A stretch of DNA of 32,000 bases, taken from assembly GCA_035506275.1 (NCBI GenBank), contig DATJPT010000011.1, forward strand, positions 25,513 through 57,512. The letters are read 5' to 3'. The translations under genes were made by a program, and so were the position numbers. Positions 10,089-26,065 of the stretch are shown here, one piece after another. Every line of letters begins with the position of its first letter. Position 1 is the first letter of the stretch. Source of the DNA: Bacteroidota bacterium (GTDB lineage Bacteria; Bacteroidota; Ignavibacteria; UBA10030; UBA8401). Below the pieces are notes generated by a model. It was given only the letters and a program-made list of their open reading frames with translations, ran no database searches and had not been told where the DNA came from.

Positions 10089-11864
10089 ATGAAGAACCTT
10101 TTCCGTTTTCTGTTTGCGCTCCTTTCGCTATTCTGGGGCTTCAGCTCTGTGTTTGCCCAGTGGGCCAGCGATCCGTCTAAGAACACTCCTGTCGACACTG
10201 GTGGCCATACGGCAGCTGATGTGGTAATGTTGAAAGACGGCAACGGAGGAGCTTTCATCGTTTGGGATGATCTGCGCGAGGGAGATAAGAATCCAAAGAT
10301 TTTCGCCCAACATCTGGATAAGAATGGCTATGCGGTGTGGGCTGCCAACGGCGTGGAAATCTCTCCCCCCGGCCTCATTCAGGCCCATCCTCAGGCAGCC
10401 GCGGTTGGAGACGGCGGAATTATTGTCTCGTGGGAGGAGGACTACAGAGATTCCGCGCTCGGAAGCGCCGCTCCGGCGATTTTTGCCCAGCGTATCAGTG
10501 TTCACGGTACGCGAATGTGGAGAGATTCTGCCTTGCAGATCGCAGGTCCGCTTCCCTTTCAGCTCTTCTATCCACTCGGCGTAACGACTGCGTGTACTTC
10601 GGACGGTTCTGGAGGCGCCTACGTTGCCTGGGCTAATCTTTACAGCGGGTTTCAGAATCTGGTCATCTCCCGGATTGACAGCTCGGGCAACATCCGGTGG
10701 TCATCCTCGGCAATGAACGGCTTTAGCGGCGGTGCCTTGCCGGTCGGTGGCTATGACGATTTGCGGCTTTTGCAGAACGGAACCTCCGGCGTAATCATTG
10801 CGTGGACCGATGTGCGAAACGCTTTCTCAACTGGAATTTCCCTGTTCGCGCAACGACTCGACAGCGCCGGTAATCGTCGTTGGGATACGACGGGGGTTGC
10901 CCTCGCGCCGAAGCCTTCGTTCCTGCAAGAGCAAGCAAACGAAGTGATCGCCTCTGATAATGCTGGCGGCGTCATCTATGCCTGGGAACAATCGCAAAGC
11001 GGATCATCCCCCCATGGATATGCAGGTCGTGTCAATGCGTCCGGAGCGCTCACCTGGATTTCGCCTTCAGATTCACTCGGAGTTATGGCGGACTCCAATA
11101 AATCGACCGGCCAGGAAAATTTATCGTTAATTCCGGACGGAAGCGGCTCAGTCCTTCTGACGTGGTCAGATGGCGAGAACTATGCGTATGTTCAGAAAAT
11201 TGCCTCCGACGGATCGTTGCCGTGGGGAGGGAACCCTCATGCTTTCGCTGCAAACACCAGCGCTGAAGTGTTGACGACAGACGGCAGCGGAGGCGCGATC
11301 GTGGCCTGGAGTCAAGGCCTGCAAAACGGCGTCAACATTTTTGCTCAACGGGTGAATAGCAGTGGGCAGCCCGTGTGGTCGAACGCTACCAACAACAATG
11401 AGGGCAATCCCGTTTCTACCACCCCCTCCACGTTCCAGACGAAACCTGTCATCGTCTCCGATGATGCGGGAGGAGCGATCGTGGCTTGGTACGATCTCCG
11501 CGCCTCGTCATTCGGCGGACCGGCCGATATTTATGCCCAGCACGTATCGAGCAGCGGCAGCGTGACGAAAGTAAATCCACACGCCTCGGCCGTGGCGACC
11601 GAATTTTCTCTCCAGCAAAACTATCCTAACCCGTTTAATCCCTCGACGCAGATTCAATTTTCCGTTCCCTCTGACGGGCGAGCGGTATTGAAGGTCTTCA
11701 ACATTCTCGGACAGGAAGTTGCAACATTGTTTGATGGAGCTGCAACGGCCGGGGAATCCCATCAAGTGACGTTTGATGCTTCGCGGTTAGCCAGCGGAAT
11801 ATATTTTTCGCGGCTGGAATTTGGCGGGAAGATGCAGATCAGGAAGATGTTGCTCCTGAAATAG
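10089..11864 (+). CDS. secreted repeat (beta-propeller-like) protein with a T9SS C-terminal sorting domain
   Basis: Signal peptide MKNLFRFLFALLSLFWGFSSVFAQ. Eight copies of a 45-60 aa repeat (D-G-x-GG-a-h-V-x-W ... I-F/Y-A-Q-R/H-h-x-x-x-G-x-x-x-W). The C-terminal about 85 aa (FSLQQNYPNPFNPSTQIQFSVP...GIYFSRLEFGGKMQIRKMLLLK) match the Por secretion tail pattern. Confidence 0.8.
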   Translation: MKNLFRFLFALLSLFWGFSSVFAQWASDPSKNTPVDTGGHTAADVVMLKDGNGGAFIVWDDLREGDKNPKIFAQHLDKNGYAVWAANGVEISPPGLIQAHPQAAAVGDGGIIVSWEEDYRDSALGSAAPAIFAQRISVHGTRMWRDSALQIAGPLPFQLFYPLGVTTACTSDGSGGAYVAWANLYSGFQNLVISRIDSSGNIRWSSSAMNGFSGGALPVGGYDDLRLLQNGTSGVIIAWTDVRNAFSTGISLFAQRLDSAGNRRWDTTGVALAPKPSFLQEQANEVIASDNAGGVIYAWEQSQSGSSPHGYAGRVNASGALTWISPSDSLGVMADSNKSTGQENLSLIPDGSGSVLLTWSDGENYAYVQKIASDGSLPWGGNPHAFAANTSAEVLTTDGSGGAIVAWSQGLQNGVNIFAQRVNSSGQPVWSNATNNNEGNPVSTTPSTFQTKPVIVSDDAGGAIVAWYDLRASSFGGPADIYAQHVSSSGSVTKVNPHASAVATEFSLQQNYPNPFNPSTQIQFSVPSDGRAVLKVFNILGQEVATLFDGAATAGESHQVTFDASRLASGIYFSRLEFGGKMQIRKMLLLK

Positions 11865-15340: not shown

Positions 15341-15413
15341 GCACCCATGGCTCAATTGGTAGAGCAACTGACTCTTAATCAGTGGGTTCCAGGTTCGAGT
15401 CCTGGTGGGTGCA
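15341..15413 (+). tRNA. tRNA-Lys (anticodon CUU)
   Basis: Hand-folded cloverleaf. Acceptor GCACCCA/TGGGTGC, D arm GCTC-AATTGGTA-GAGC, anticodon stem ACTGA/TCAGT with loop CT-CTT-AA, variable GGGTT, T arm CCAGG-TTCGAGT-CCTGG, discriminator A. CCA is not encoded. Confidence 0.95.
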
Positions 15414-15555
15414 CTGAAAATCCCCCAGAGTAAATCAAGGAGGTGGTTTCTGGTCTACTTACGGTAATCAGATATCAGCGTAGATTTCAGTTTCCCCCGG
15501 TGCTTTTCCCCGCGGTTTTGTTTCACCGCTCCCGCGAAGAACCTTTCCGTCATTT

Positions 15556-16530
15556 CTACTTGTTCGGCTCCAGGTCCTGCTTCAGATATCGCTCCATGAT
15601 TCGCTTCATGAATTCTTCTTTATTGATCGTCATGAGGATTTCGGCGTTCGGCGGTCGTGTACTGTCGATCATGGTGTACCCTGCATCGTCAACATGGATA
15701 TGAGCTTTCCGGCTCGTGAAAAGTTCCGGCCAGAGGACGTAGCCAACTGCAACCACATCGTACAAAGTAGGGTCGGCGTTTGCAAAGCTCTCGTACAACC
15801 AGAGAGAATATAGCCCGCACAGCGCATTTGTCAAAGGCGATTGGCGCATAAGCAGTCTGTTCCGGTTTGCTTCATTCAACTTCACAAATGTCGTCACATC
15901 CAGCCCCGCGAACGTTTTCTTTGCATCCGCTGCGACAAACGCTTTCGAGGCCTCGATGTCGGCCCTTACATTCCACTCGGCATCCGGTATCGGCCCGCCG
16001 TTGTATCCCATGTAAAACGAGCCAAACATCGAGACAATTTGTTTGGCAAGTTTCAGCGCACTTTTATCCTTCTTAATGACCTCTTTGATGTTGCAGACAG
16101 GGCCTACGGTGAAGAGAACAACTTCGTTGGGATACTTTTTCAGACTGGAGATGATGAAATCTGCCGCGTTCATATTCGACGGGGCTACTTTGTCAAATCC
16201 ATCGGACCAATAGAATTGATTGGAGCGTCCGGCAATTTCCTTGTCGACGCCGACTATTCCGGGGGTTGGAGCGCCGACGAAAACCGGAATAGAGTCTTTC
16301 CCGGCTTCATATAGAAGCTTGCAAAGAGTTCTTGCACGCAGCGGCGTGTTGCCATGGTCGACAACGAAGCCAAGGACATCGAATTCCGGGCTGTTGAGGA
16401 TAAGCGCGACGGCAAAAGCGTCGTCGATGTCTCCGCCGATATCGCAGTCGAAAATTATTTTTTGCTTTTCTTTTCCCGATACAAAAAGAGGAATAAAAAA
16501 AATGCTCAAGAGAAAGAGTGTCTTTTTCAT
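15556..16530 (-). CDS. nucleoside hydrolase (inosine-uridine preferring, IUNH family) with an N-terminal signal peptide
   Basis: From the internal Met (CAT at 16528-16530): signal peptide MKKTLFLLSIFFIPLFVSG, then IIFDCDIGGDIDDAFAVALIL (the DxDxxxDD Ca/ribose site of nucleoside hydrolases). The track ORF's upstream 53 codons run through hairpin-rich leader sequence and are discounted. Confidence 0.85.
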   Translation of the reverse strand: MKKTLFLLSIFFIPLFVSGKEKQKIIFDCDIGGDIDDAFAVALILNSPEFDVLGFVVDHGNTPLRARTLCKLLYEAGKDSIPVFVGAPTPGIVGVDKEIAGRSNQFYWSDGFDKVAPSNMNAADFIISSLKKYPNEVVLFTVGPVCNIKEVIKKDKSALKLAKQIVSMFGSFYMGYNGGPIPDAEWNVRADIEASKAFVAADAKKTFAGLDVTTFVKLNEANRNRLLMRQSPLTNALCGLYSLWLYESFANADPTLYDVVAVGYVLWPELFTSRKAHIHVDDAGYTMIDSTRPPNAEILMTINKEEFMKRIMERYLKQDLEPNK

Positions 16531-16614
16531 TTTGATGTCCTGTTGTTCAATATCTTTCAGGGAGCGACCAGATCGACGCTGAAGGTAGCGGAAGGGGATA
16601 TAAGAAGCAACAAT

Positions 16615-16694
16615 AAAAAACCCGGTGTTGGGGGGAACACCGGGCTTGACCCTTTCAAGGTGCAACAATGAGGGGAGGCATCGTTGCACAGGTC
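16615..16694 (-). ncRNA. candidate small RNA or transcription-attenuator leader with three hairpins (two C-rich loops) and an intrinsic terminator
   Basis: Read on the - strand, downstream of a TTGACA-17-TAATTT promoter-like element. Hairpin 1 is GTGCAACGATG-[CCTCCCCT]-CATTGTTGCAC (11 bp with one G.U, 16689-16660). Hairpin 2 is CTTGA-[AAGGG]-TCAAG (16659-16645). Hairpin 3 is CCCGGTGTT-[CCCCCC]-AACACCGGG followed by TTTTTT (16644-16615). The 5' end is estimated. Confidence 0.4.
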
Positions 16695-16700
16695 AAAATG

Positions 16701-16729
16701 AAATTAGGAAAATGAAAAACCACTGTCAA
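16701..16729 (-). promoter_or_regulatory. sigma70-like promoter candidate (TTGACA-17-TAATTT) driving the hairpin unit and nucleoside hydrolase
   Basis: On the - strand: TTGACA at 16729-16724, a 17-nt spacer and TAATTT at 16706-16701. Confidence 0.4.
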
Positions 16730-16977
16730 GCAGGCGCAATGCGCGATTAACTATATTGCAAGAGAGTATTCGGCGACACTAACATCCGTTCTACATCTAG
16801 AACATTAAAGGTGAGGAAAAACGTTCCGCTGCGAACGCAGAATTTGCTCGGCGGGTTTAACATATCTCGCTCGCGGATCTGGCTCATTTTCAACAAACCC
16901 ATGGCAGGATTGGGCAAAATCGACCTCACGAGGGCCTGTAGGCCCATCGCAAGCGGTTTGCAATACCTAGTTTCTCC

Positions 16978-17005
16978 TTGACAAAACTAATTTTTCTTTT
17001 ATATT
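16978..17005 (+). promoter_or_regulatory. sigma70-like promoter candidate (TTGACA-16-TATATT) for the five-gene stator/rotor operon
   Basis: TTGACA at 16978-16983, a 16-nt AT-rich spacer and TATATT at 17000-17005. It lies about 135 nt upstream of the first ATG (17143). No other gene lies between. Confidence 0.45.
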
Positions 17006-17142
17006 ACAGCAGATTAGGAGATAGTTTGCAAGAAGTATTTAAATTGATTGCGGTAATTACTTCTAAAATGTAGTGCTGTTTCTTGGGATGCGCTGTAGGC
17101 GTTGTTTAATTCTTTTCCAATCACAATGAGCAGACAAACATC

Positions 17143-18270
17143 ATGCAATCGCGGCGCAATTATCTTCTGGTAGCATTATTGTTCGTCTTTGCAGTCTCCT
17201 TTCTCTCCTACACAAGTAAAGCCCAGCAGCAACCGCCAACTCAAGATTCTCAGTCAGAAACAAAAGGGGTATCGATTGAGAACTCGAAGCTTATCTCTAT
17301 TTTCCCAAAATTTGATATTGCGCTTGATACCGCGCTGTCTTCAATGACACCGGTTCTGAGGGAAGTCAGTCCAAGCATCAGAACGCTGCTCCTTTACAAG
17401 ACAAAAGTCCGGTGGCCGTTCAAGGAAGAATTGTCGTATTCAGAGATCCAGTTTCTCTCGAGCTATTTTGAGGGGAAATTAAAAAATGCTTTGACCAAAG
17501 ACCACCGTTTCGCTACAGTGGGCGCACAGGATTTGAAAACGCTTTCGTTCAAAGCAACCGACAGCACGCTCCAGGTGAAGAACACCTACACCGAGGATGA
17601 AATTCGCACCTATGCGAAAGCCCACAATGTCGACGGTATAGTCTCAACCGACGTGTTGGTTTCATCCAACCAGATCATCATGTTTGTGAATATCAACGAC
17701 CTGAACGGCATCACGGTCTGGAGCAAAGAGTTGAAGGCCGACTATCGTGTGCTCCCTTCGGATGCGGGGGCGGAGCTTGCCGCTGAATATGCGTTGAAGC
17801 GAAAAACGGGGCTTATTGAAAATTACCTCACGTTTGGCTTCAATCTAGGGTCCTCGTATACGCTTGGCGTCAAAGACAGCGGGAACAACGTCGGTTATTA
17901 TTCTGTCGGCTACCGGCTGAACGAGATGGCGACCATTCTGAACTTCCTGAAGTTCTATCTTGACGGCCGTTTAATGGGAACCTCTAAATACGGGTTGATG
18001 GGAATCATCGCTATGCCGGGATTTTCGTTCGAGATCATTGGGAACGATCAAATCGGTCCGGGAATTTTGATGCTCGACGTGGCGGGAGGGTTCAACATTT
18101 CCTTCAAGAACAGCGGCATCGCAGAGTCGTACTACGGAGGACTGTCGCTGCGGCTGAGCCGCAACATCGGCATTACCGGTTTCTACAACATGATCTCCAT
18201 CAACAAGACCTTCGACCATTCGGATGTTGCCGGACCGCTCTACGGTATCCAAGTGAATTTTGTTCTGTGA
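17143..18270 (+). CDS. secreted protein with an LpoB/FlgO-like N-terminal alpha/beta domain and a Gly/aromatic-rich C-terminal region (putative outer-membrane beta-barrel); operon gene 1
   Basis: Signal peptide MQSRRNYLLVALLFVFAVSFLSYTSKAQ. The N-domain ends in ...AKAHNVDGIVSTDVLVSSNQIIMFVNINDLNGITVWSKE, the pattern seen in LpoB/CsgG/FlgO-type periplasmic domains. The last 170 aa or so form alternating hydrophobic strands rich in G/Y/F (YLTFGFNLGSSYTLGV, VGYYSVGYRLN, GFSFEIIGN, GLSLRLSRNIGITGFYNMISI, LYGIQVNFVL). No family was recognised by name. Confidence 0.6.
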   Translation: MQSRRNYLLVALLFVFAVSFLSYTSKAQQQPPTQDSQSETKGVSIENSKLISIFPKFDIALDTALSSMTPVLREVSPSIRTLLLYKTKVRWPFKEELSYSEIQFLSSYFEGKLKNALTKDHRFATVGAQDLKTLSFKATDSTLQVKNTYTEDEIRTYAKAHNVDGIVSTDVLVSSNQIIMFVNINDLNGITVWSKELKADYRVLPSDAGAELAAEYALKRKTGLIENYLTFGFNLGSSYTLGVKDSGNNVGYYSVGYRLNEMATILNFLKFYLDGRLMGTSKYGLMGIIAMPGFSFEIIGNDQIGPGILMLDVAGGFNISFKNSGIAESYYGGLSLRLSRNIGITGFYNMISINKTFDHSDVAGPLYGIQVNFVL

Positions 18271-18295
18271 TGAACATGCTCATCGAGGATAGTTT

Positions 18296-19003
18296 ATGAA
18301 AAGAGTTTTAGGTGTCTCATTAATGGTATGGTCTTTAGCGCTGGGTGCCGCGGCTCAGGAAAATTATAGCGCACCGTCCGATTCGGCATCGAAGAGCGCG
18401 GCGAAAGTTCAGCCGGCCTCTTCCAAGGAGACCGGAACTCCATCCGCTCCCGCTTCGGTCAAACTGAATACACCGACGCTCAACATGGATGTCCTGCTCG
18501 ACCTCTACAATAAGGACATCGACTTCACGATCGATTATTCGGGACAAGGGCTTCGGAAGAACGTCCAAGGAGGAAATGAGGAAGAAGAACAGCCAAAGCA
18601 AACTCCTGCACGAAAGAAGAGCACGAACGGCGCGGCCGATGAATTGCTGAAGCCTCAAAAGGAAGATCTCGCATCGGACATTCAGGACATCGTCGACACC
18701 TCGAACGTCAAAAAGAAACAGCCGCGGCAGGGGACGTACACAAAGGACGATGCCGATTACAACAGGGCGCTCAACAGTCTTCAGGAAGCGCAGACACTTT
18801 TCTCCGAGCGCCGGTATGCACAGGCGCTCGCTGAAATCAATAAATCAGTGGATGCCGCGCCGAACATGGCGCTTGCGTACGCCGTACGCGGATCGATTTA
18901 CTACATGCTTCGGCAGTTCCCCGAGGCGAAGCAGAGTTGGGAAAAAGCTCTCGAGCTCGACCCGTCGATGGACAATGTGCGGGCCATACTTTATCGGATG
19001 TAA
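18296..19003 (+). CDS. secreted TPR-repeat protein with a long low-complexity K/E/Q/S-rich linker; operon gene 2
   Basis: Signal peptide MKRVLGVSLMVWSLALGAAAQ. Disordered-looking region of about 130 aa. C-terminal TPR units (YNRALNSLQEAQTLFSERRYAQALAEINKSVDAAPNMALAYAVRGSIYYMLRQFPEAKQSWEKALELDPSMDNV). Confidence 0.7.
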   Translation: MKRVLGVSLMVWSLALGAAAQENYSAPSDSASKSAAKVQPASSKETGTPSAPASVKLNTPTLNMDVLLDLYNKDIDFTIDYSGQGLRKNVQGGNEEEEQPKQTPARKKSTNGAADELLKPQKEDLASDIQDIVDTSNVKKKQPRQGTYTKDDADYNRALNSLQEAQTLFSERRYAQALAEINKSVDAAPNMALAYAVRGSIYYMLRQFPEAKQSWEKALELDPSMDNVRAILYRM

Positions 19004-19021
19004 TTAACTGAAAGGCCACGT

Positions 19022-19870
19022 ATGAATTCAACTTTTATCGGTTATGTCCTTTTTGCTATTGCTGCGTATGTGCTTTTGATCATCGGCGCAGAGTCGGAGA
19101 CGGTCGATGCTCTGCAGAAGGGATATGTTCCGGAATCGCTCATTCATTATATCCACATCCCCGGCATCATCTTCGTTTTTTTCGGCGTCAGCTCTTCGAT
19201 GATGATCAGCTACAATTTCCGGGAGTTGTTTGGAGCCGCGCGTGCTCTCTATTTTGTGTACATACGAAACAGGATCAATTTCCTGGTCTATCTCGAGACC
19301 ATCAAGGATATTGCCCAATACTCCAACACACACGACATTGAATCCCTCGAGGATTATGCCAATCAGATAAAGTATCCTTTTTTGCGCGACGGCGTTCTTA
19401 TGCTTGTCAACGGCTATAAGAAGGAAGAGATCAAAGAGATCCTCGATGCCAGGATTGATAACGAGGCACAGCGTGAATCGACGGATGTCAACGTCTTCCG
19501 GGCGGCAGCCCGTTATTCCCCGGGCTACGGCATGCTTGGCACGACGGTGGGTCTGATCCAGATGTTCTCGACAAAGATCGATGCTGCAGCGGGCTTCGGC
19601 CCGATTCTGCAGGCATTGGCCGTCGCCTTTACGACGACGCTGTACGGCTTGTTTCTGTCCAACTTTATCTTCGCGCCGTTCGCCGATAAGATCGAGAAAC
19701 GGACCGATGAGGAGGCCCTCCTGAAAAGCATGATCGTTGAAGGCCTTTGTCTGATCAAGGACAAGAGACATCCGGTCTTCATTCAGGACAAGCTTTCGTC
19801 GTATATCCCGCAGAGCCGCGCATTGTCGGTGCCGTCAGTATCGCAGCTTTCACCCGAAGGCGGAGCGTAG
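19022..19870 (+). CDS. motA: MotA/PomA-type stator proton (ion) channel subunit A; operon gene 3
   Basis: Four-TM architecture with a cytoplasmic loop of about 100 aa between TM2 and TM3. This fits flagellar MotA, not the 3-TM ExbB/TolQ. It aligns by eye to MotA: ...ESLEDYANQIKYPFLRDGVLMLVNGYKKEEIKEILD..., TM3 SPGYGMLGTTVGLIQMF and TM4 AFTTTLYGLFLSNFIFAPFADKIEKR. Both MotA-type conserved prolines are present. Confidence 0.85.
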   Translation: MNSTFIGYVLFAIAAYVLLIIGAESETVDALQKGYVPESLIHYIHIPGIIFVFFGVSSSMMISYNFRELFGAARALYFVYIRNRINFLVYLETIKDIAQYSNTHDIESLEDYANQIKYPFLRDGVLMLVNGYKKEEIKEILDARIDNEAQRESTDVNVFRAAARYSPGYGMLGTTVGLIQMFSTKIDAAAGFGPILQALAVAFTTTLYGLFLSNFIFAPFADKIEKRTDEEALLKSMIVEGLCLIKDKRHPVFIQDKLSSYIPQSRALSVPSVSQLSPEGGA

Positions 19871-19874
19871 GCGT

Positions 19875-20543
19875 ATGAGACGACGCGACAGAAAAAAGTC
19901 GGAAGAACAGCACTGGCAAGTCAGCTATATCGACTTGTTGACGGCGATGCTTGCATCGTTTACGCTGCTGTTATCGCTGTCGATTCCCGACCAGTCGAAA
20001 CTCGACAGCCTGGCTTCATCCGTCACCGAAGCCGCGAAACAGCAAGCAAACCTTGGAACGCTGTCGAGAGAGCTGATGACCACGATCGAAAAGAACTCCT
20101 CGTTGAAAGGACAGGTCAACGTCGTGATGACCGACGCCGGCATCGAGCTGAGGTTCGGCAGCAATCTGCTGTTCCCCCCCGGGAAAGCTGCGCTGCGGCC
20201 GGAAGGATACGACGCTATTTTCAGCATCGGAAAGATCCTGGGCTATTTCGTCAAGGCTCGCAACGCATTTATATCGGTGGAAGGGCATACCGACGATACG
20301 CCATTGCGGAGCACCGTGGAATTCCGGTCGAACTGGGAGTTATCGTCTGCCCGAGCAACGGAAGTGGTTCACTACCTCCAGGACACGGTAGCGATCGAAG
20401 GGAAGCGCCTGTCGAGTACCGGCTTTGCCGATGCACGTCCTCAAAACAAAGAAAAAGACCCTGTGACCGGACAGTTTACCGAGAAAGCCCGGAACGACAA
20501 CCGCCGAGTTGTCATTCGGATTTACTACCACAACGACGTTTAA
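19875..20543 (+). CDS. motB: MotB-type stator subunit B with an OmpA-like peptidoglycan-binding domain; operon gene 4
   Basis: N-terminal WQVSYIDLLTAMLASFTLLLSL (the single TM helix preceded by the invariant channel Asp, as in WKIAYADFMTAMMAFF of MotB). C-terminal OmpA-like motifs VEGHTDDTPL, SNWELSSARATEVVHYL, GFADARP and NRRVVIRI. It starts 4 nt after motA. Confidence 0.85.
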   Translation: MRRRDRKKSEEQHWQVSYIDLLTAMLASFTLLLSLSIPDQSKLDSLASSVTEAAKQQANLGTLSRELMTTIEKNSSLKGQVNVVMTDAGIELRFGSNLLFPPGKAALRPEGYDAIFSIGKILGYFVKARNAFISVEGHTDDTPLRSTVEFRSNWELSSARATEVVHYLQDTVAIEGKRLSSTGFADARPQNKEKDPVTGQFTEKARNDNRRVVIRIYYHNDV

Positions 20544-20580
20544 AGACGAAATTGCTATTTCAAAACATCCTGGAACACAT

Positions 20581-22389
20581 ATGAAAACTCGATTGACAAA
20601 GATTATCCTTCTGCTTGCGGTGGTAGCGCAGGCGAAGTTGTTTGCCGTCGACCTTGAGCTTGAGAAGAAAAAAATGGAACGGGATCTGGAGGACCGCATC
20701 TCAATGGAGATCCGCCGGTACTTCTCGGACCTCAATTTTCTCGTGACCGCGGAAGTGACGCTCGTCGATCTTTCGACGCCGGCAAAGTCCAAGGGAGACA
20801 ACAGAGATTTCCTTCTTCCCGGCGTTTCAGGATTCCAGGCGCAGCCGCAGACATCGGACGAAGTTGAAAAGCCGCAGTTCGGCGTCGAGTCGATCGTCGT
20901 TAAGATGCTCATCGATAAGAATCGAACCCCTGAAGAGAAAGACCTGCTGACGAACATCGCGTTCTACACCGGCAAGTTGAACAAGGTCCGGGGCGATCGG
21001 GTCGACCTCCAGGAGATGTCGTTCCCGGCCAGCACATTGCAGATTCAGCGCGAACAGCAGAAGGCCGAACAGGAAAAACAGATACAGCAGCTCGAAAAAG
21101 AAAAGCAGGACGCAGAATTGCGTGCAGGGGAAAAATCCTCGAACGATCTTACGCCGGCAAAGCCGCAGGATTCTTTTTTTAACCCCACAACGCTGCTGTT
21201 GATTGCGCTCGGTGTGCTCCTGCTGATTCTTATCGTTGTCCTTCTTTCACGAGGGAAGAAAGAATCTTCCGCGGAAGCGATGATGCAGCAGTCGCCGCAG
21301 GCCGAGGAGCTTCCCGCCGTCTCTGCTCAACAGGCCATTGCCGATTCGAACGCAGAATACCAGGAAGCCATAGAGGTCGATAAGGTGAAATCGAACCTCA
21401 TCGTCTCATGCGCCGGGGAATCAGATCTGACGTCGCACGTCATCAGGGACATGATCGCGGATGCGAATCAAAAAGAGAGGCTGACCGTCATCATCGGTCA
21501 ACTGGGAAATAACGTCCTGCAGGTGATGCGCGATCATTTTTCCATCGAGGAGATGAAGGCGCTTCAGGCATTGACGCTGGAAAAGCGCGAAAGCACGCCG
21601 GCCGAAGCGCGAGAGGCGCTGACGTTCTTCCAGAATCAGCTCGCCGTGAAAAGATTCTCGGAAGCCGGAAATTCGAAGCAGAACCCGTTTGCGTTTCTCG
21701 AAAAGTTATCCGAGCCTCAACTGTACCTGCTGATGAAGGACGAACCCCCGGGAATAATCGCCATTATCTTGTCTCAGTTGACGACGCCGATCGCAAGCTC
21801 GATGCTGAAGAATTTGCCGTCGATGCAGCAAGGAGAGGTTGCACTGGAGCTTGGAAAACTCCGCCGGCTGACGTCGGACACGTATGTCTCCGTGGCAAAG
21901 CAGCTTGCTGCAAAGGCCGCCACGATCCCGGTGATCAACAACGTCCAGGTTCAGGGAACGGACCTCCTTCTCGACATCTTCGATAATATCGATGAATCGG
22001 CCGAATCCTCGATCATTGAATTCATTAAAGTGGTGAACCTGGACCTCTACCGCGAGATCACGAGCCAGCGCGTTTCCTTCAACGCGATCAATCAGCTGGA
22101 TGAAAGGGTTCTTCGTCAGATCGTCAAGGATATCTCCGGCGACGAGATCGCGATCGCCCTAAAGAATGCTCCTCATGAAATTTCCGAGCGGTTCCTCTCG
22201 GTGCTTCCTTCAAAGTCAAGGATCATTCTCGAGGACCGGCTGAATTCTATGAAAGCGGTCTCGCCGGACGATGAATTGAAGGCGCGCCGGCGAATTACCC
22301 GGATGGTCAGGCAGTATATCAAGGCCGGCGGTGTCCAGGCAGCTTCCCTCGAAACGGGGGAAGAAACCGAAGAAGCACAGGTTCAATGA
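20581..22389 (+). CDS. bitopic membrane protein: N-terminal signal/anchor, FliF/YscJ-like ring-building-motif periplasmic domain, coiled-coil linker, TM helix and cytoplasmic three-domain FliG-like module; operon gene 5
   Basis: Start taken at ATG 20581 (MKTRLTKIILLLAVVAQAKLFA). The periplasmic part has an alpha-beta-beta-alpha-beta pattern (LERDLEDRISMEIRRYFSDLNFLVTAEVTLVDL ... VESIVVKMLIDKNRTPEEKDLLTNIAFYTGKLNKVRGDRVDLQEMSF). A Q/E/K-rich linker follows, then the TM helix TTLLLIALGVLLLILIVVLLS. The cytoplasmic region aligns by eye to FliG. The M domain is LSEPQLYLLMKDEPPGIIAIILSQLTTPIASSMLKNLPSMQQGEVALELGKL (cf. EHPQ-tIALiLs-L-p--Aa-vL--Lp). The C domain is FNAINQLDERVLRQIVKDISGDEIAIALKNAPHEISERFLSVLPSKSRIILEDRLNSMKAVSPDDELKARRRITRMVRQYIKAG (cf. 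FEDI-KLDDRSIQRVLREVD--DLALALKGAS-EL-EKI--NMSKRAA--L-EDLE-MGPVR--DVE-AQQ-I----RRL). Confidence 0.75.
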   Translation: MKTRLTKIILLLAVVAQAKLFAVDLELEKKKMERDLEDRISMEIRRYFSDLNFLVTAEVTLVDLSTPAKSKGDNRDFLLPGVSGFQAQPQTSDEVEKPQFGVESIVVKMLIDKNRTPEEKDLLTNIAFYTGKLNKVRGDRVDLQEMSFPASTLQIQREQQKAEQEKQIQQLEKEKQDAELRAGEKSSNDLTPAKPQDSFFNPTTLLLIALGVLLLILIVVLLSRGKKESSAEAMMQQSPQAEELPAVSAQQAIADSNAEYQEAIEVDKVKSNLIVSCAGESDLTSHVIRDMIADANQKERLTVIIGQLGNNVLQVMRDHFSIEEMKALQALTLEKRESTPAEAREALTFFQNQLAVKRFSEAGNSKQNPFAFLEKLSEPQLYLLMKDEPPGIIAIILSQLTTPIASSMLKNLPSMQQGEVALELGKLRRLTSDTYVSVAKQLAAKAATIPVINNVQVQGTDLLLDIFDNIDESAESSIIEFIKVVNLDLYREITSQRVSFNAINQLDERVLRQIVKDISGDEIAIALKNAPHEISERFLSVLPSKSRIILEDRLNSMKAVSPDDELKARRRITRMVRQYIKAGGVQAASLETGEETEEAQVQ

Positions 22390-22410
22390 TATTGTGCAGG
22401 TTTTGTGCAA

Positions 22411-22445
22411 GGAGGAGCACTTGTTTCAGGTGCTCCTCTTTTTTT
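22411..22445 (+). terminator. Rho-independent terminator closing the stator/rotor operon
   Basis: Perfect 9-bp GC-rich stem GAGGAGCAC / GTGCTCCTC (22412-22420 / 22430-22438) with a 9-nt loop, followed by seven Ts (22439-22445). It lies 22 nt after the stop codon. Confidence 0.8.
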
Positions 22446-22485
22446 GGGGATTTTTTCCTATTTCAGGATTGTTAAAATAGTAGTG

Positions 22486-23472
22486 ATGAACGATCGCACA
22501 GCATATACTCCGCCGGCCCGCTCGCCAGCCTTCAATGAAGAGTTGCTCCTTCTGGAGCAGGGTGATGCGGTCGTCGATTTTTCCGGCCACGGGATTCTTC
22601 GGCTTGAAGGAAAAGATTCGCTCGATTTTCTTCACAGAATCTCTACAAATGATCTGAAGGATCTTCGCCCGGGACAATCAGTACAGACGGTGCTCACGAC
22701 GGAAAAGGGGAGAGTCATCGATTCAATCGTCGTACATCATGCGGGAGACTTTCTCGTGGGGATAACCGGCAGAGGTGCAGGGATGCAGGTCCGGCAATGG
22801 CTCGAGAAGTTCATCATTATGGAAGACGTGAAGATTGTTGACCGCACAGGAGATGGCTTCCTCTTTGCTCAAATGAATTCCCCCAGCGCCGATGAGCATT
22901 CGTTCGATGCAGACCAAAGAAGCTGCTTCCATTCACCGTATTTCGGCGGGAAAGCGATTTTCTATTATTGGGATGAGGCGATTGAGCCGCCGCCTGTAGT
23001 TGATCAATTAGTTGAAAAAAAAGTAAGCCGTGAAGCTTTTGAACTCTATTGTATTGAGCATGGCATCATTCAAAGCGAACCTGAGGTATTGCTTGAATGT
23101 AATCCGCTGGAGCTGAACCTGTGGGACCAGGTGAGCTTCACCAAAGGCTGTTACATCGGCCAAGAGGTTGTTGCGCGGCTTGATACGTATAAAAAAGTCC
23201 AGCGGACGCTTTGCAGAATTCATGTCGAACCGGAATTCTCTGACGCAACAAAGCATCGACTTTTTTCACAGCAAAAGGAAGTAGGAATTCTGTTGAATAA
23301 TGGGGTCTTGACAGGCAACGGGGATCATCGGATTGCGCTCGCTGTTATCAGAAAAGAATATGCACTCCTAGGTGCGCGATACTTGGTTGACAACAGCAAG
23401 ACATCGATCACGATCGGCCGGATATTCGATCACAATGGAAAAATAAATGGAAACAATCACAATAACTGCTGA
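22486..23472 (+). CDS. ygfZ: YgfZ/GcvT-like folate-binding protein (Fe-S cluster repair / tRNA-modification associated)
   Basis: GcvT-type fold signature with the YgfZ motif VSFTKGCYIGQEVVARL. Start taken at ATG 22486 (MNDRTAYTPP...), because the track's upstream 27 codons cover the terminator. Confidence 0.75.
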   Translation: MNDRTAYTPPARSPAFNEELLLLEQGDAVVDFSGHGILRLEGKDSLDFLHRISTNDLKDLRPGQSVQTVLTTEKGRVIDSIVVHHAGDFLVGITGRGAGMQVRQWLEKFIIMEDVKIVDRTGDGFLFAQMNSPSADEHSFDADQRSCFHSPYFGGKAIFYYWDEAIEPPPVVDQLVEKKVSREAFELYCIEHGIIQSEPEVLLECNPLELNLWDQVSFTKGCYIGQEVVARLDTYKKVQRTLCRIHVEPEFSDATKHRLFSQQKEVGILLNNGVLTGNGDHRIALAVIRKEYALLGARYLVDNSKTSITIGRIFDHNGKINGNNHNNC

Positions 23473-23950
23473 CGGGAAAAAGGAAAAATACGCTGAGCTG
23501 TATCCTCAAATTGCGGCGCTCGTCGAAGATGAAAGCGATCTCACGGCAAATATGGCGAACGTCAGCGCGGCTTTGAAATCGACCTTTTCGTCGTATTCAT
23601 GGGTCGGGTTCTACCGCGTTGTCAACGGAGAGTTGGTGCTCGGGCCGTTTCAGGGGAAAGTCGCCTGCGTCCGGATCAAGATTGGAAGCGGCGTGTGCGG
23701 GACGGCGGTCAAAGAAAGGAAAACGATCATCGTTCCCGACGTAGAGAAATTTCCAGGGCATATTGCCTGCGACCCCGAGTCCAAGTCGGAAATTGTTGTT
23801 CCTCTCCTTGCCGGAAGCCGGATTTTTGGCGTCATTGACGTGGACAGCAACCACCTCAATTCGTTCGACGGAACAGATAAAGTCCAGCTCGAAAGAATAG
23901 CGGAGATCATAACCAAGAAATTCGTTCAATCACCCCAAGGCACCAATTGA
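23447..23950 (+). CDS. msrC: GAF-domain protein, free methionine-(R)-sulfoxide reductase (MsrC/YebR) family
   Basis: The single GAF domain of 167 aa has the fRMsr pattern: WVGFYRV...LVLGPFQGKVACVRIKIGSGVCGTAVKERKTIIVPDVEKFPGHIACDPESKSEIVVPL. Confidence 0.8.
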   Translation: METITITADGKKEKYAELYPQIAALVEDESDLTANMANVSAALKSTFSSYSWVGFYRVVNGELVLGPFQGKVACVRIKIGSGVCGTAVKERKTIIVPDVEKFPGHIACDPESKSEIVVPLLAGSRIFGVIDVDSNHLNSFDGTDKVQLERIAEIITKKFVQSPQGTN

Positions 23951-25667: not shown

Positions 25668-26033
25668 GGGGGTGAATGGTTTCGACGGGGTAGAAGATGG
25701 TTAGACATAAGCATACCGTGCTCTCCGAGTCGCACGTAAATAAAGCGGAACCAACTTAAGTGCAGACTACAACTACGCACTCGCTGCTTAACTAAACCTT
25801 AAGCTGCGCATCTTCATAAGGCCCTACCTGACTGGTTTTATGCAAGGTGTCGACTTTAGTCGGGCGTGCTAATGCCAACGCTGGAGAGGTATTAGTGAAG
25901 TTCTATCCCAGATAGCTTTGAGAGTGATGAGTTCGTCCGTCAACTCACGGCGAATGGTTCACGAGATGAACTGAGTATGGAGAAGGTCTAATGGTCATCA
26001 CTCCGGACCGGGGTTCGAATCCCCGCACCTCCA
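25668..26033 (+). ncRNA. ssrA: tmRNA (SsrA)
   Basis: 5' end GGGGGTGAATGGTTTCGACGGGG. 3' end GGACCGGGGTTCGAATCCCCGCACCTCCA, giving a tRNA-Ala-like acceptor (GGGGGTG/CACCTCC with G3.U70) and T arm. The internal tag reading frame ends ...GCA GAC TAC AAC TAC GCA CTC GCT GCT TAA (25762-25791), i.e. ...ADYNYALAA. The resume codon is not certain. Confidence 0.9.
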
Positions 26034-26065
26034 CGAGAGTTTTCAGAACCGTATTAGCGCATCCG

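Follow-up and report, generated by a model that had tools for sequence, protein, structure and literature searches.

The locus considered here raises the question of what a stator and a rotor of flagellar type are doing in an operon set among housekeeping genes. A sequence-only reading of the window (i.e., the whole 32,000-nucleotide stretch of DNA analysed) had described five co-directional, closely spaced genes with unrelated housekeeping flanks, a TTGACA-16-TATATT element ahead of them, a strong terminator closing them and no rod, hook, filament, type III export gate, FliM/N or chemotaxis genes in the 32 kb, and this description was reproduced. The ORF list placed g1 to g5 on the + strand with intergenic gaps of 25, 18, 4 and 37 nt (Table 1); the start of g5 is an ATG, and an in-frame TTG upstream of it at 20509 would give an overlap with g4. 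The upstream flank is a nucleoside hydrolase gene (IU_nuc_hydro) on the opposite (-) strand and the downstream flank encodes a YgfZ-like GCV_T protein, and no flagellar or chemotaxis family was found among the ORFs scanned, which covered most of the window.

The promoter element has 11/12 matches, but matches of this quality were no rarer than in shuffled sequence. Its support came from conservation, since TTGACA-16-TATATT and the ~135-nt leader that follows were kept in 10 relatives in which the DNA farther upstream was unrelated. The leader motif TTGCAAG..TTTAAATTG.TTGCGGTAATT is a possible operator; an Rfam search of the leader gave no match and a covariation analysis of it found no covarying structure. 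The terminator hairpin (22409-22441, followed by a T-run) had a calculated folding energy of -23.1 kcal/mol (z = -4.75) and was still present in L012, a relative from which the module is deleted.

Table 1. Coordinates of the features of the five-gene operon (positions in the window; aa, residues of the respective product)
Feature	Position	Strand	Details
Sigma-70-like promoter element TTGACA-16-TATATT	16978-17005	+	11/12 matches (no rarer than in shuffled sequence); near-invariant in 10 relatives
Conserved ~135-nt leader	17006-17142	+	sequence conservation in relatives
g1	17143-18270	+	375 aa
g1 parts			signal peptide; predicted alpha/beta periplasmic domain aa ~49-221; predicted 8-strand C-terminal barrel aa 228-374
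g2	18296-19003	+	235 aa
g2 parts			signal peptide; low-complexity region; C-terminal TPR repeats aa ~150-231
g3	19022-19870	+	282 aa
g4	19875-20543	+	222 aa
g5	20581-22389	+	602 aa
g5 RBM3-like periplasmic domain	20653-21024	+	aa 25-148; AF2 secondary structure, Foldseek, hhalign
g5 TM helix	21184-21252	+	aa 202-224; RGKK on cytoplasmic side
g5 helical region (FliF C-terminus + FliG_N)	21322-21675	+	aa 248-365
g5 FliG middle + C-terminal domains	21691-22335	+	aa 371-585; torque helix LPSKSRIILEDRL
Intrinsic terminator	22409-22445	+	15-bp stem + U-run

The products had also been named in the sequence-only reading, g3 as a flagellar-type MotA with four transmembrane helices, g4 as a MotB with the channel Asp and an OmpA-like anchor, and g5 as a ring-building motif joined through a TM helix to FliG N, M and C domains, and these assignments were upheld by profile and fold searches. 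The product of g3 matched MotA_ExbB (1.9e-21) and, among NCBIfam models, scored 150 bits with MotP and 133 bits with PomA as opposed to 14 bits with TolQ, all under the equivalog cutoffs; its best PDB relatives were MotA1 (9lu9, 3e-28) and PomA (8bri, 6e-27), with no ExbB or TolQ among them. Both channel prolines are retained, PomA E96/E97 are kept as E/D, and R88/K89 are replaced by N/T, the equivalent of E. coli MotA R90 being lost in the window's lineage. The product of g4 matched MotB_plug (1.1e-9), OmpA (2.7e-15) and, under threshold, NCBIfam MotD (127 bits); its channel Asp is D20 (nt 19932-19934), and SYIDLLT aligns with YADILT of B. subtilis MotB. The pair is a flagellar-type MotA/MotB stator, with channel Asp, two channel prolines, plug and peptidoglycan-binding domain.

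The product of g5, taken here as the rotor protein, is a single polypeptide with a periplasmic part that is like FliF RBM3 and a cytoplasmic part that corresponds to FliG N, M and C. FliG_M (7e-12), FliG_C (2e-19) and T. maritima FliG MC (6.9e-22) were matched by profile, FliG_N was matched below threshold in 28/28 family members, and Foldseek aligned 304-331 columns with full-length FliG (3hjl, 8umx), one match of the model extending over 317 columns. In the AF2 model (pTM 0.28, with low confidence for the collar-like loop, aa 65-97), the topology of aa 25-148 was alpha-beta-(insertion)-beta-alpha-beta, similar to that of FliF RBM3 except that the collar insertion is shortened. Motifs RDxxLPGVxGF and RGDxV are conserved in this domain, and P80, G81, R137, G138 and D139 are invariant. 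Foldseek matches to FliF RBM3/S-ring structures (8z5v, 3e-3; 6sd1, 4.9e-3; 8z4d, 9.7e-3) had a probability of 1.0 and high rmsd, while Pfam YscJ_FliF_C was matched by 14 of the 28 family members, all below threshold. A periplasmic coiled coil (aa 152-181), the length of which differs between lineages, precedes the TM helix; P0034-36 and P0050 have an extra ~70-100 aa in the spacer.

A split variant of the module in Marinimicrobia/Calditrichaeota shows g5 to be a natural fusion of FliF and FliG; in it, MotA-MotB and two TPR genes are followed by separate genes for a FliF-like protein (536-576 aa; YscJ_FliF_C, 2.8e-4) and a FliG with N, M and C domains (305-324 aa). The N-terminal profile of g5 was collinear with the split FliF-like proteins (E 1e-8 to 2e-12; 95% hhalign probability for the RBM region) and profile 246-308 matched their C-terminal end, while profile 306-375 gave a weaker, non-significant match to the N-terminus of split FliG. 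When the N-terminal half served as the sole query against 1.84 billion representatives, 16 proteins were recovered, all full-size or fragments, and FliG_M and FliG_C were present in each of the 10 that were checked. Judged from these sequences, the fusion is a coherent family. It lacks FliF RBM1/2, which house the export gate, and the FliG motif that binds FliM; EHPQ is missing from fused and split forms alike, g5 having DEPPG in its place and RVSF in place of MFXF. The position of FliG D289 is occupied by R and, given the loss of the MotA R90 equivalent, the canonical charge pairs are only half kept.

Assignment of g1, like that of the g5 N-terminus, required structure prediction and fold search, as no Pfam or NCBIfam family was matched. 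Foldseek with the AF2 model (pLDDT 70) gave LpoB (4q6l, 4.9e-5, TM 0.64) and next NspA/OmpA/OmpX, which agrees, at the fold level only, with the signal peptide, LpoB-like domain and barrel proposed earlier; aa ~49-221 are predicted to adopt a periplasmic LpoB/TolB-N-like fold and the C-terminus an OmpA/OmpX-like outer-membrane barrel. A g1 HMM recovered the counterpart gene in remote modules (2e-9 to 9e-4). The product of g2, earlier called a periplasmic TPR protein, matched TPR_2 (3.8e-10) and TPR_1 (7e-9) and, with its signal peptide, is secreted, its predicted location being the periplasm. A TPR gene was found in nearly all annotated variant modules, and g1 and g2 accompany the stator and rotor genes across phyla.

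Conservation of the five genes as a unit was evident from their co-occurrence, in two main orders, in several phyla. All five components were found together in more than 40 loci labelled Ignavibacteria/Bacteroidota, Fibrobacterota (including one Fibrobacteraceae MAG) and, in one case, Gammaproteobacteria. The order g1-g2-g3-g4-g5 was seen in Ignavibacteria/Bacteroidota-labelled loci, one of them at the same chromosomal position with 47% identity, the order rotor-OMP-TPR-MotA-MotB in Fibrobacterota, the Fibrobacteraceae MAG and other lineages, and yet another order in the Gammaproteobacteria MAG. Annotated flanks were housekeeping genes; those of the distinct contexts included no flagellar or chemotaxis gene, and in every annotated context the nearest 10 kb were free of flagellar genes. 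Reading frames were intact across phyla at 21-47% identity, and dN was 0.03-0.16 for g1-g5 as opposed to 0.52 for the adjacent ygfZ (dS saturated), values that show strong purifying selection on all five genes. In L012, the module was deleted as a unit, leaving a pseudogene scar, which indicates that it is dispensable. Several neighbours were each noted in one lineage only: the module lies directly downstream of ftsQ-ftsA-ftsZ in L015/L029-32, is headed by a SPOR-domain protein in L053 and adjoins SpoIID in L055, while the rotor of a remote variant, P0159, carries a LysM domain. Some variants adjoin Wza/Wzc genes, and the module of the Fibrobacteraceae MAG adjoins a Fib_succ_major gene.

Resemblance of g1 to LpoB and the TolB N-domain, a CpoB-like TPR protein in g2, the differing length of the g5 periplasmic helix and the fts, SPOR, LysM and SpoIID hints would fit a Tol-Pal-like transducer. 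In such a device g5 would be a TolA/TonB-like energised adaptor (a monomer or small oligomer) instead of a spinning ring, pulled or cycled through FliG_C by MotA rotation so as to perform conformational work on g1 and g2 and coordinate peptidoglycan and outer membrane, e.g., at division. This seems unlikely, since the stator is not of TolQR type, Tol and Ton are coupled via TM helices whereas g5 has a FliG domain, RBM domains build rings and the nearest structures are S-rings of MS-rings, and the neighbourhood hints are lineage-specific. More doubtful still is the idea that these genes form or modify part of the motor of a real flagellum whose regulon lies elsewhere in the host. As an accessory or alternative set, they could add a second stator on a scaffold of its own, comparable to PflA/PflB, FlgO/P/T or MotX/Y. 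MotA, MotB and FliG are all of flagellar type, TPR scaffolds and outer-membrane-linked discs serve stators in Campylobacter, Helicobacter and Vibrio (PMC12054838), and flagellar genes are present in Ignavibacteria relatives (PMC3362086, PMC6338057). However, g5 carries an RBM and a membrane anchor of its own, is unable to bind FliF in the ordinary manner, has neither the EHPQR of canonical FliG nor the RBM1/RBM2 of canonical FliF, and is far from canonical FliG (91 bits with TIGR00207, cutoff 227 bits), and the annotated contexts are free of flagellar genes. The module also occurs in a Fibrobacteraceae MAG, and Fibrobacter in culture are not known to be flagellated. It is found, too, in Marinimicrobia, a phylum whose sole isolate, which may or may not carry the module, is non-motile (PMC11652737).

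The scar in L012 and the partly altered interface residues might suggest that the module is a functionless, decaying remnant of a flagellum since lost, but this is very improbable and already largely refuted: purifying selection exceeds that on the neighbouring housekeeping gene, frames, promoter and leader are conserved, and the non-flagellar partners g1 and g2 were acquired and are themselves conserved. An anti-phage system, Zorya-like or otherwise MotAB-based, can scarcely be entertained. The product of g4 matched ZorB models (2e-23), as would any MotB, but g3, at 282 aa, has neither the long ZorA tail nor a ZorA match, no ZorC/D-like effector was found, and the module is passed on at a syntenic site of the chromosome, not in a defence island.

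With moderate confidence, we favour a self-contained, envelope-spanning rotor-stator machine, i.e., the torque-generating core of a flagellum without the flagellum. By likeness to FliF and to engineered FliF-FliG fusions, which assemble into rings (PMC11481574; 10.1101/2023.02.06.527414), g5 would form a ring in the membrane by oligomerising via its RBM; peptidoglycan-anchored MotA5B2 units of g3 and g4 would unplug upon docking and, turned by ion flow, push on the charged FliG_C helix of g5; and motion or force would pass through the variable-length coiled coil and RBM ring to g2 and g1 and from there to the peptidoglycan or the outer membrane. We infer a rotary or force-transducing action on this basis. 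Counting against such a machine are the weak FliF-RBM3 match (Foldseek E ~3e-3 with high rmsd; Pfam below threshold), the half-kept MotA-FliG charge pairs and the one relative that lacks the module, and LysM on the P0159 rotor is hard to reconcile with a rotor that turns freely against the peptidoglycan. Some hosts, e.g., Ignavibacteria relatives, may have full flagellar regulons, so that co-operation with a flagellum is conceivable. Our best guess is that the output is an envelope process (e.g., a cell-wall, division or outer-membrane process, or surface polymer handling) and not filament propulsion; variants have LysM or SPOR partners or adjoin ftsQAZ or Wza/Wzc. No description of the five-gene module was found in the searchable literature, and its composition, together with its recurrence across several phyla, suggests an undescribed ion-driven envelope machine.

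The five genes of the module, g1 to g5, read in one direction and are as tightly packed as the sequence-only reading had claimed, the ORF coordinates giving the same four gaps. For g5, the mechanical ORF list gave a TTG start at 20509, overlapping g4; the ATG was adopted, which agrees with the N-termini of all g5 homologues in the alignment and yields the gap that had been read between g4 and g5. The promoter element proposed in the same reading, TTGACA-16-TATATT, was an 11/12 match to a pattern that is no less frequent in shuffled sequence. In an upstream alignment of ten relatives, however, the element and a leader of approximately 135 nt were nearly invariant while the DNA farther upstream was unrelated, and because of this near-invariance the element was accepted as the operon promoter. 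The leader, strongly conserved in relatives, holds an imperfect palindrome, TTGCAAG-N..-TTTAAATTG.TTGCGGTAATT. Since a search of the long upstream region for riboswitches or regulatory RNA gave no match in Rfam and no covariation with RNAalifold, the leader could be a protein operator. The strong intrinsic terminator noted at the end of the operon consists of a 15-bp stem and a U-run (-23.1 kcal/mol, z = -4.75). The genes on either side of the operon were also as described: a minus-strand nucleoside hydrolase precedes it and a YgfZ-like protein follows. Elsewhere in the window lie genes for cytochrome-oxidase assembly, an ABC transporter, a two-component pair, nucleotide salvage and a T9SS-tailed protein, with SecG, DapF, PurL and similar housekeeping genes, a tRNA and a tmRNA. 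In agreement with the earlier statement that flagellar and chemotaxis genes are missing, neither the ORFs scanned in the 32-kb window nor the annotated flanks of distinct relatives included a gene for a type III export gate, rod, hook, filament, FliM/N or chemotaxis.

Coordinates of the features described in the window and at related loci
Feature	Sequence	Position	Strand	Remarks
Protein with Por_Secre_tail domain	window	10089-11864		T9SS C-terminal sorting domain
tRNA-Lys(CTT)	window	15341-15414		97% identical in L012
Region compared with L012	window	15557-23600
Hairpin	window	16618-16647	-	12-bp GC-rich stem and T-run, kept in L012
Promoter	window	16978-17005		TTGACA-16-TATATT
Leader	window	17006-17142		imperfect palindrome
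Leader and g1 ATG left in L012	window	17008-17149		77% identity
g1	window	17143-18270	+	ORF; 25-nt gap to g2
g2	window	18296-19003	+	ORF; 18-nt gap to g3
g3	window	19022-19870	+	ORF; 4-nt gap to g4
g4	window	19875-20543	+	ORF; 37-nt gap to g5
g5	window	20581-22389	+	ORF, ATG start
g5 coiled-coil spacer	window	21034-21180		g5 aa 152-200; columns 200-300 of alignment A1
tmRNA	window	25668-26036		160 bits, tag ADYNYALAA
L012, module lost	CAWJKX010000228.1	3100-4720
L015, module after ftsQ-ftsA-ftsZ	L015	2864-6223
L050, split form	CP070638.1	5261-12652		closed 3.4-Mb genome
L052, rotor with LysM	L052	6666-8891
L053, SPOR/Sel1 and Wza/Wzc/Wzy	L053	3191-17415
L055, SpoIID neighbour	L055	2483-3559

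Two other features of the window were noted. The T9SS-tailed protein implies a type IX secretion system in the host, as would fit an organism of the FCB group. The minus-strand hairpin lies immediately 5' of where the nucleoside hydrolase probably starts (MKKTLF..., near 16530), inside a mechanical GTG-extended ORF; it gave only sub-threshold sRNA matches, apparently terminator-driven (ar14, 34.9 bits against a cutoff of 58.8), and may act as an attenuator or terminate a small antisense transcript.

Database searches agreed with the description of g3 as a four-helix flagellar-type MotA and of g4 as a MotB with a channel aspartate and an OmpA-like anchor. Thus, g3 matched MotA_ExbB in Pfam (1.9e-21) and, in NCBIfam, MotP, PomA and MotA with 150, 133 and 121 bits, as opposed to 14 bits (E 0.024) for TolQ, the scores remaining below the equivalog cutoffs throughout (150 vs 394 bits). 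The solved relatives of g3 are all flagellar stators, namely Paenibacillus MotA1 (3e-28), Vibrio PomA (6e-27) and the MotA proteins of Clostridium, Bacillus, Aquifex and Campylobacter. The protein has four TM helices and a flagellar-type cytoplasmic domain and retains the two channel prolines, and g4 contains a MotB plug (1.1e-9), an OmpA-like domain (2.7e-15) and the channel aspartate D20 within SYIDLLT. Judged from these matches, g3 and g4 appear to belong to the flagellar-type stator class (MotAB/PomAB, the 'FIT' clade of PMC12505986), defined by an A subunit with four TM helices, a cytoplasmic torque interface of about 100 aa and two channel prolines and by a B subunit with the Asp, a plug and a PG-binding domain.

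The rotor protein, g5, matched FliG_M (7e-12) and FliG_C (2e-19) in Pfam and FliG-MC of T. maritima (1lkv, 6.9e-22). A model built from 28 homologues (pLDDT 68, pTM 0.28) predicts a hydrophobic helix, a periplasmic alpha-beta-loop-beta-alpha-beta domain with a 36-residue loop and a coiled coil, followed by one TM helix, RGKK, about 115 helical residues and FliG M and C. Foldseek against the PDB placed full-length FliG first (3hjl, 2.6e-10), and since this alignment spans 317 columns, the FliG N domain is covered too; some twenty FliF RBM3 or S-ring entries, including 6sd1 and 8z5v, came after it (E 3e-3 to 2e-2, probability 1.0). The insertion sits between the first two strands of the RBM3-like domain, which matches the place where, in published MS-ring structures, the beta-collar breaks RBM3 of FliF. 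This ring-building motif (RBM; aa 25-148) is the only one in g5 and lies between an N-terminal signal or anchor and the single TM helix; a FliF has two TM helices and RBM1-RBM2-RBM3, whereas g5 is without RBM1 and RBM2 and gave no PF01514 match. YscJ_FliF_C was matched below threshold in 14 of the 28 fused proteins. The coiled-coil spacer between RBM and TM helix differs in length by about 70-100 residues between lineages, being long in the g5-like proteins P0034-36 and P0050, and could set the distance of the ring from the inner membrane.

A split form of the module, with separate FliF-like and FliG genes, was recovered by a metagenome scan with the family alignment (L038-41, L048, L049 and later L050). 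Its gene order is lipoprotein, TPR, second TPR, MotA, MotB, a FliF-like protein of 536-576 aa and a FliG of 305-324 aa with N, M and C domains, its flanks are housekeeping genes, and the labels of the genomes, from a profile search that included the FliF-like proteins, were Marinimicrobia, Fidelibacterota and Calditrichaeota; one of them is closed (L050). The 536-aa protein fell just short of the threshold for Pfam YscJ_FliF_C ('flagellar M-ring protein C-terminal'; 2.8e-4), and the FliF-like protein has a collar-sized insertion of about 100 aa. A profile of g5 residues 1-365 was collinear with the split FliF-like proteins (E 1e-8 to 2e-12) through, in order, helix and strand 1, strand 2-helix-strand 3, the TM helix and the last 60 or so residues, and hhalign gave 95% probability for the RBM region; the remainder of the profile aligned far more weakly, and not significantly, with the beginning of the split FliG. 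On account of the collinear match, the hhalign result and the YscJ_FliF_C matches, g5 corresponds to the C-terminal half of FliF, with RBM3, TM2 and the FliG-binding tail, fused to a FliG. Neither the fused nor the split form has the other half of FliF (TM1 proper, RBM1 and RBM2), which accommodates the export gate. The proposal that g5 unites a FliF-like RBM, a TM helix and FliG N/M/C domains was thus upheld by profile and fold searches, the RBM at the level of fold only.

The product of g2, described earlier as a periplasmic TPR protein, indeed has a signal peptide, a low-complexity stretch and TPRs at its C-terminal end. No Pfam or NCBIfam family was found for g1, scanned singly and over 20 homologues. 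An AlphaFold model of g1 (20 homologues, pLDDT 70) shows a signal peptide, an alpha/beta domain resembling LpoB (4q6l, E 4.9e-5, TM 0.64) and also the TolB N-domain, and an eight-strand barrel resembling NspA, OmpA and OmpX; the LpoB-like domain and barrel-like C-terminus assigned from sequence therefore stand at the level of fold. The g1 HMM picks out genes of about 360 aa in remote modules (2e-9 to 9e-4), whose products finish with an aromatic outer-membrane signal.

Residues at the interface between rotor and stator were partly retained. With its N, M and C domains and charged torque helix, g5 has the features of a FliG; the equivalents of E. coli K264, R281 and D288 are K, K and D, while D289 is R and R297 is S. 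In g3, the positions of PomA E96/E97 (E. coli E98) are E/D and those of R88/K89 (E. coli R90) are N/T. Of the established charge pairs, R90-D289 and E98-R281 (PMC7564593), one persists and both partners of the other have changed. The split-form MotA retains ARKG, which is lost in the fused lineage. This charge pattern, from a handful of columns, would fit a working, re-tuned interface; co-variation of MotA R90 with FliG D289 was suggestive, too thin to claim. The FliM-binding EHPQR is DEPPG in the window, DEPAG or DESPG in relatives and AEPPR in the split form, as compared with ERPQ in a control FliG, encoded in a normal fliF-fliG operon of Lachnospiraceae, and the MFXF hinge of g5 is RVSF.

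Conservation of the five genes as a unit, on which the sequence-only reading had made its proposal depend, was evident from tblastn of the five proteins against 13 genome and 33 metagenome loci, where g1-g2-g3-g4-g5 occurred together wherever the contig was long enough, and from remote modules. In an Ignavibacteria-labelled MAG with 47% g5 identity, the module occupies the matching chromosomal position (CtaA-CtaB-ABC-SCO1 ... SecG / module / YgfZ-LOG-transglutaminase-DapF); other lineages have quite other flanks, as in L015, where the module directly follows ftsQ-ftsA-ftsZ. A phmmer search of 1.84 billion representative proteins with the non-FliG half of g5 gave 16 matches, and FliG_M and FliG_C were found in 10/10 of those scanned, so that the fusion forms a family that is rare yet coherent. 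Rotor, ~360-aa protein, TPR, MotA and MotB follow one another in this order in Fibrobacterota L014, in the Fibrobacteraceae MAG L057, where the module adjoins a Fib_succ_major gene, and in L056 and L058; L054 has the same order, its third gene having no recorded TPR match. In L053, a Gammaproteobacteria-labelled MAG, a SPOR/Sel1 protein heads the module and is followed by MotA, MotB, a 372-aa protein, TPR and rotor, with Wza/Wzc/Wzy genes after them. The rotor of L052 bears an N-terminal LysM domain, and SpoIID is a neighbour of the module in L055. Among 100 non-redundant flank proteins compared with NCBIfam, the best 25 families were two-component regulators and YgfZ, so that no flagellar family is recurrent, although single ones may be present.

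Values of dN between the window and its relative L001 were 0.11, 0.16, 0.05, 0.03 and 0.07 for g1 to g5 and 0.52 for the adjacent ygfZ-like gene, the neighbouring gene serving for comparison since dS was saturated and dN/dS ratios were uncomputable for most pairs. By this measure of substitution, the module is evidently under selection. In L012, the module is gone while the hydrolase (82% aa identity) and ygfZ are intact. What is left is a scar in which the leader and g1 ATG run directly into the final 79 codons of g5, where stop codons have appeared; the terminator is retained, and a copy of the promoter lies about 270 nt farther upstream, separated from the leader by an unrelated insert. The structure of the scar indicates that the module was lost in one piece. 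The module is dispensable.

The closest relative of the module is the flagellar motor core, with which it shares homologous families (MotA/PomA, MotB with Asp, plug and OmpA-like domain, FliG N/M/C and an RBM3-like domain) and a topology in which stator and FliG_C face each other in the cytoplasm. Unlike the flagellum, however, it is without RBM1 and RBM2, no gene for an export gate, rod, hook, filament, FliM/N or Che protein lies close by, its EHPQR and MFXF are altered, FliF and FliG are one polypeptide with a collar insertion of only ~36 aa, it is constantly accompanied by an outer-membrane barrel/LpoB-like protein and by a TPR protein, and every score against flagellar families is under the NCBIfam equivalog cutoff. 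Lacking the FliM-binding motif, a full FliF and neighbouring export and axial genes, it does not classify as a flagellum. Engineered FliF-FliG fusions of Salmonella and Vibrio alginolyticus (PDB 8z4d/8z4g), in which FliF is covalently joined to FliG as in g5, assemble into MS-rings (PMC11481574; 10.1101/2023.02.06.527414), and g5 matched 8z4d by sequence (2e-6) and by fold; those fusions are laboratory constructs with full-length FliF whereas g5 is natural, has no counterpart to the N-terminal half of FliF and occurs apart from all other flagellar parts. The high-torque scaffolds of Campylobacter/Helicobacter (PflA/PflB TPR and FlgP disc) and Vibrio (FlgO/FlgP/FlgT H-ring and MotX/Y T-ring) likewise pair a periplasmic TPR and an outer-membrane-associated protein with a MotAB-type stator, around which they are probably placed, but are add-ons to a complete flagellum; sequence comparison with the module detected no relationship, the sole match being FlgT_M (0.036) in 1/20 g1-family members. 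The membrane-anchored alpha-beta-beta-alpha-beta RBMs of SpoIIIAG/SpoIIIAH and SctJ/SctD also carry an insertion between strands and build large periplasmic rings; in contrast with the module, these are static conduits with no MotAB stator or FliG coupling.

The earlier view that the module is none of the named MotAB-like systems was borne out. Tol-Pal (TolQ-TolR-TolA-TolB-Pal-CpoB) resembles it as a five- or six-gene operon that spans all envelope layers and has an ion-driven 5:2 motor. Among its parts, too, are a long periplasmic helix on a membrane anchor, a domain of TolB-N/LpoB fold, a TPR protein and a PG binder of OmpA type. The module differs in its flagellar-clade stator, in coupling through a FliG domain and in lacking TolA domain III, the TolB propeller and the Pal lipoprotein; with 14 bits for TolQ, no TolA, TolB or Pal family match and only the g1 domain sharing the TolB-N fold, identity with Tol-Pal was rejected. 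Also rejected were ExbBD-TonB (no ExbB, ExbD or TonB matches), GldLM/PorLM (no Pfam or NCBIfam matches, and four TM helices in g3 against two in GldL of this T9SS motor, which also has the periplasmic GldM shaft), Zorya, with its long-tailed ZorA and effector genes (in PADLOC, g3 did not match ZorA and the matches of g4 to ZorB were generic), AglRQS/Glt (a single GltJ match, E 0.051, across a low-complexity stretch) and the TPR/OmpA/MotA-family clusters from cellulose-adhesion proteomics of Fibrobacter succinogenes, which are of ExbBD/TonB type.

The module is conserved and selected, and is rated here as rotor-stator machinery outside a flagellum. A role inside an ordinary flagellum is argued against by a g5 with its own membrane anchor, no RBM1/2 and altered EHPQ(R) and MFXF, and by the annotated contexts of distinct relatives, none of which holds a flagellar gene within 10 kb. 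The presence of the module in a Fibrobacteraceae MAG argues in the same direction, cultured members of this family being, to our knowledge, non-flagellated, as does its presence in Marinimicrobia, counted at phylum level, of which a single isolate exists, a non-motile one (PMC11652737). The chief reservation is that the module may work together with a flagellum encoded elsewhere; flagella are indeed encoded by relatives of the Ignavibacteria lineage (PMC3362086, PMC6338057). A Tol-Pal-like, non-rotary action also stays alive because of the LysM-bearing rotor variant, on account of which at least some versions may not spin freely. There is a substantial chance that the module is a distinct rotary machine.

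Of the parts of the module, g5 is a membrane protein that offers FliG_C to the stator in the cytoplasm and carries the RBM3-like domain on a helical periplasmic stalk of variable length, g3/g4 are a PG-anchored, plug-gated flagellar-type stator, g2 is a periplasmic TPR protein and g1 is an outer-membrane barrel with an LpoB/TolB-N-like periplasmic domain. In the mechanism proposed for them, g5 would form a ring, the stators would dock, open, turn and push it, and motion or force would pass on to g2 and g1. Hints as to the output, each from one lineage (ftsQAZ, SPOR, the LysM rotor, SpoIID, Wza/Wzc/Wzy), point to cell wall, division or surface polymers. The literature searched, including that on FliG/FliF/MotAB outside flagella and on FliF-FliG fusions, contained no description of the module, nor was it mentioned in a paper on MotAB evolution (PMC12505986) or a survey of flagellar loss (PMC12199754), and it is apparently undescribed. 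The full proposal, a previously unrecognised, free-standing, ion-driven rotary machine with a FliF-FliG fusion ring, flagellar-type stators and periplasmic coupling to an outer-membrane barrel, serving a non-swimming purpose in non-flagellated bacteria such as Fibrobacteraceae and Marinimicrobia, is put forward tentatively, its chances falling somewhat short of even. Such a machine would have arisen by reduction of the flagellar basal body or else be a surviving relative of a pre-flagellar rotor-stator core.

FliG and FliF, the MS-ring protein, are seen as specific to the flagellum, and the known non-flagellar 5:2 motors (Tol, Ton, GldLM, Agl and Zorya) all use other coupling partners. A rotor and stator kept together and provided with their own envelope partners would be a new use of the rotor-stator principle. 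The module would give a minimal five-gene system for torque generation and MS-ring assembly without an export apparatus, and would bear on the evolution of the flagellar motor from, or its degradation to, functional sub-assemblies. Matches to motA, motB and fliG in 'non-motile' genomes need not be relics.
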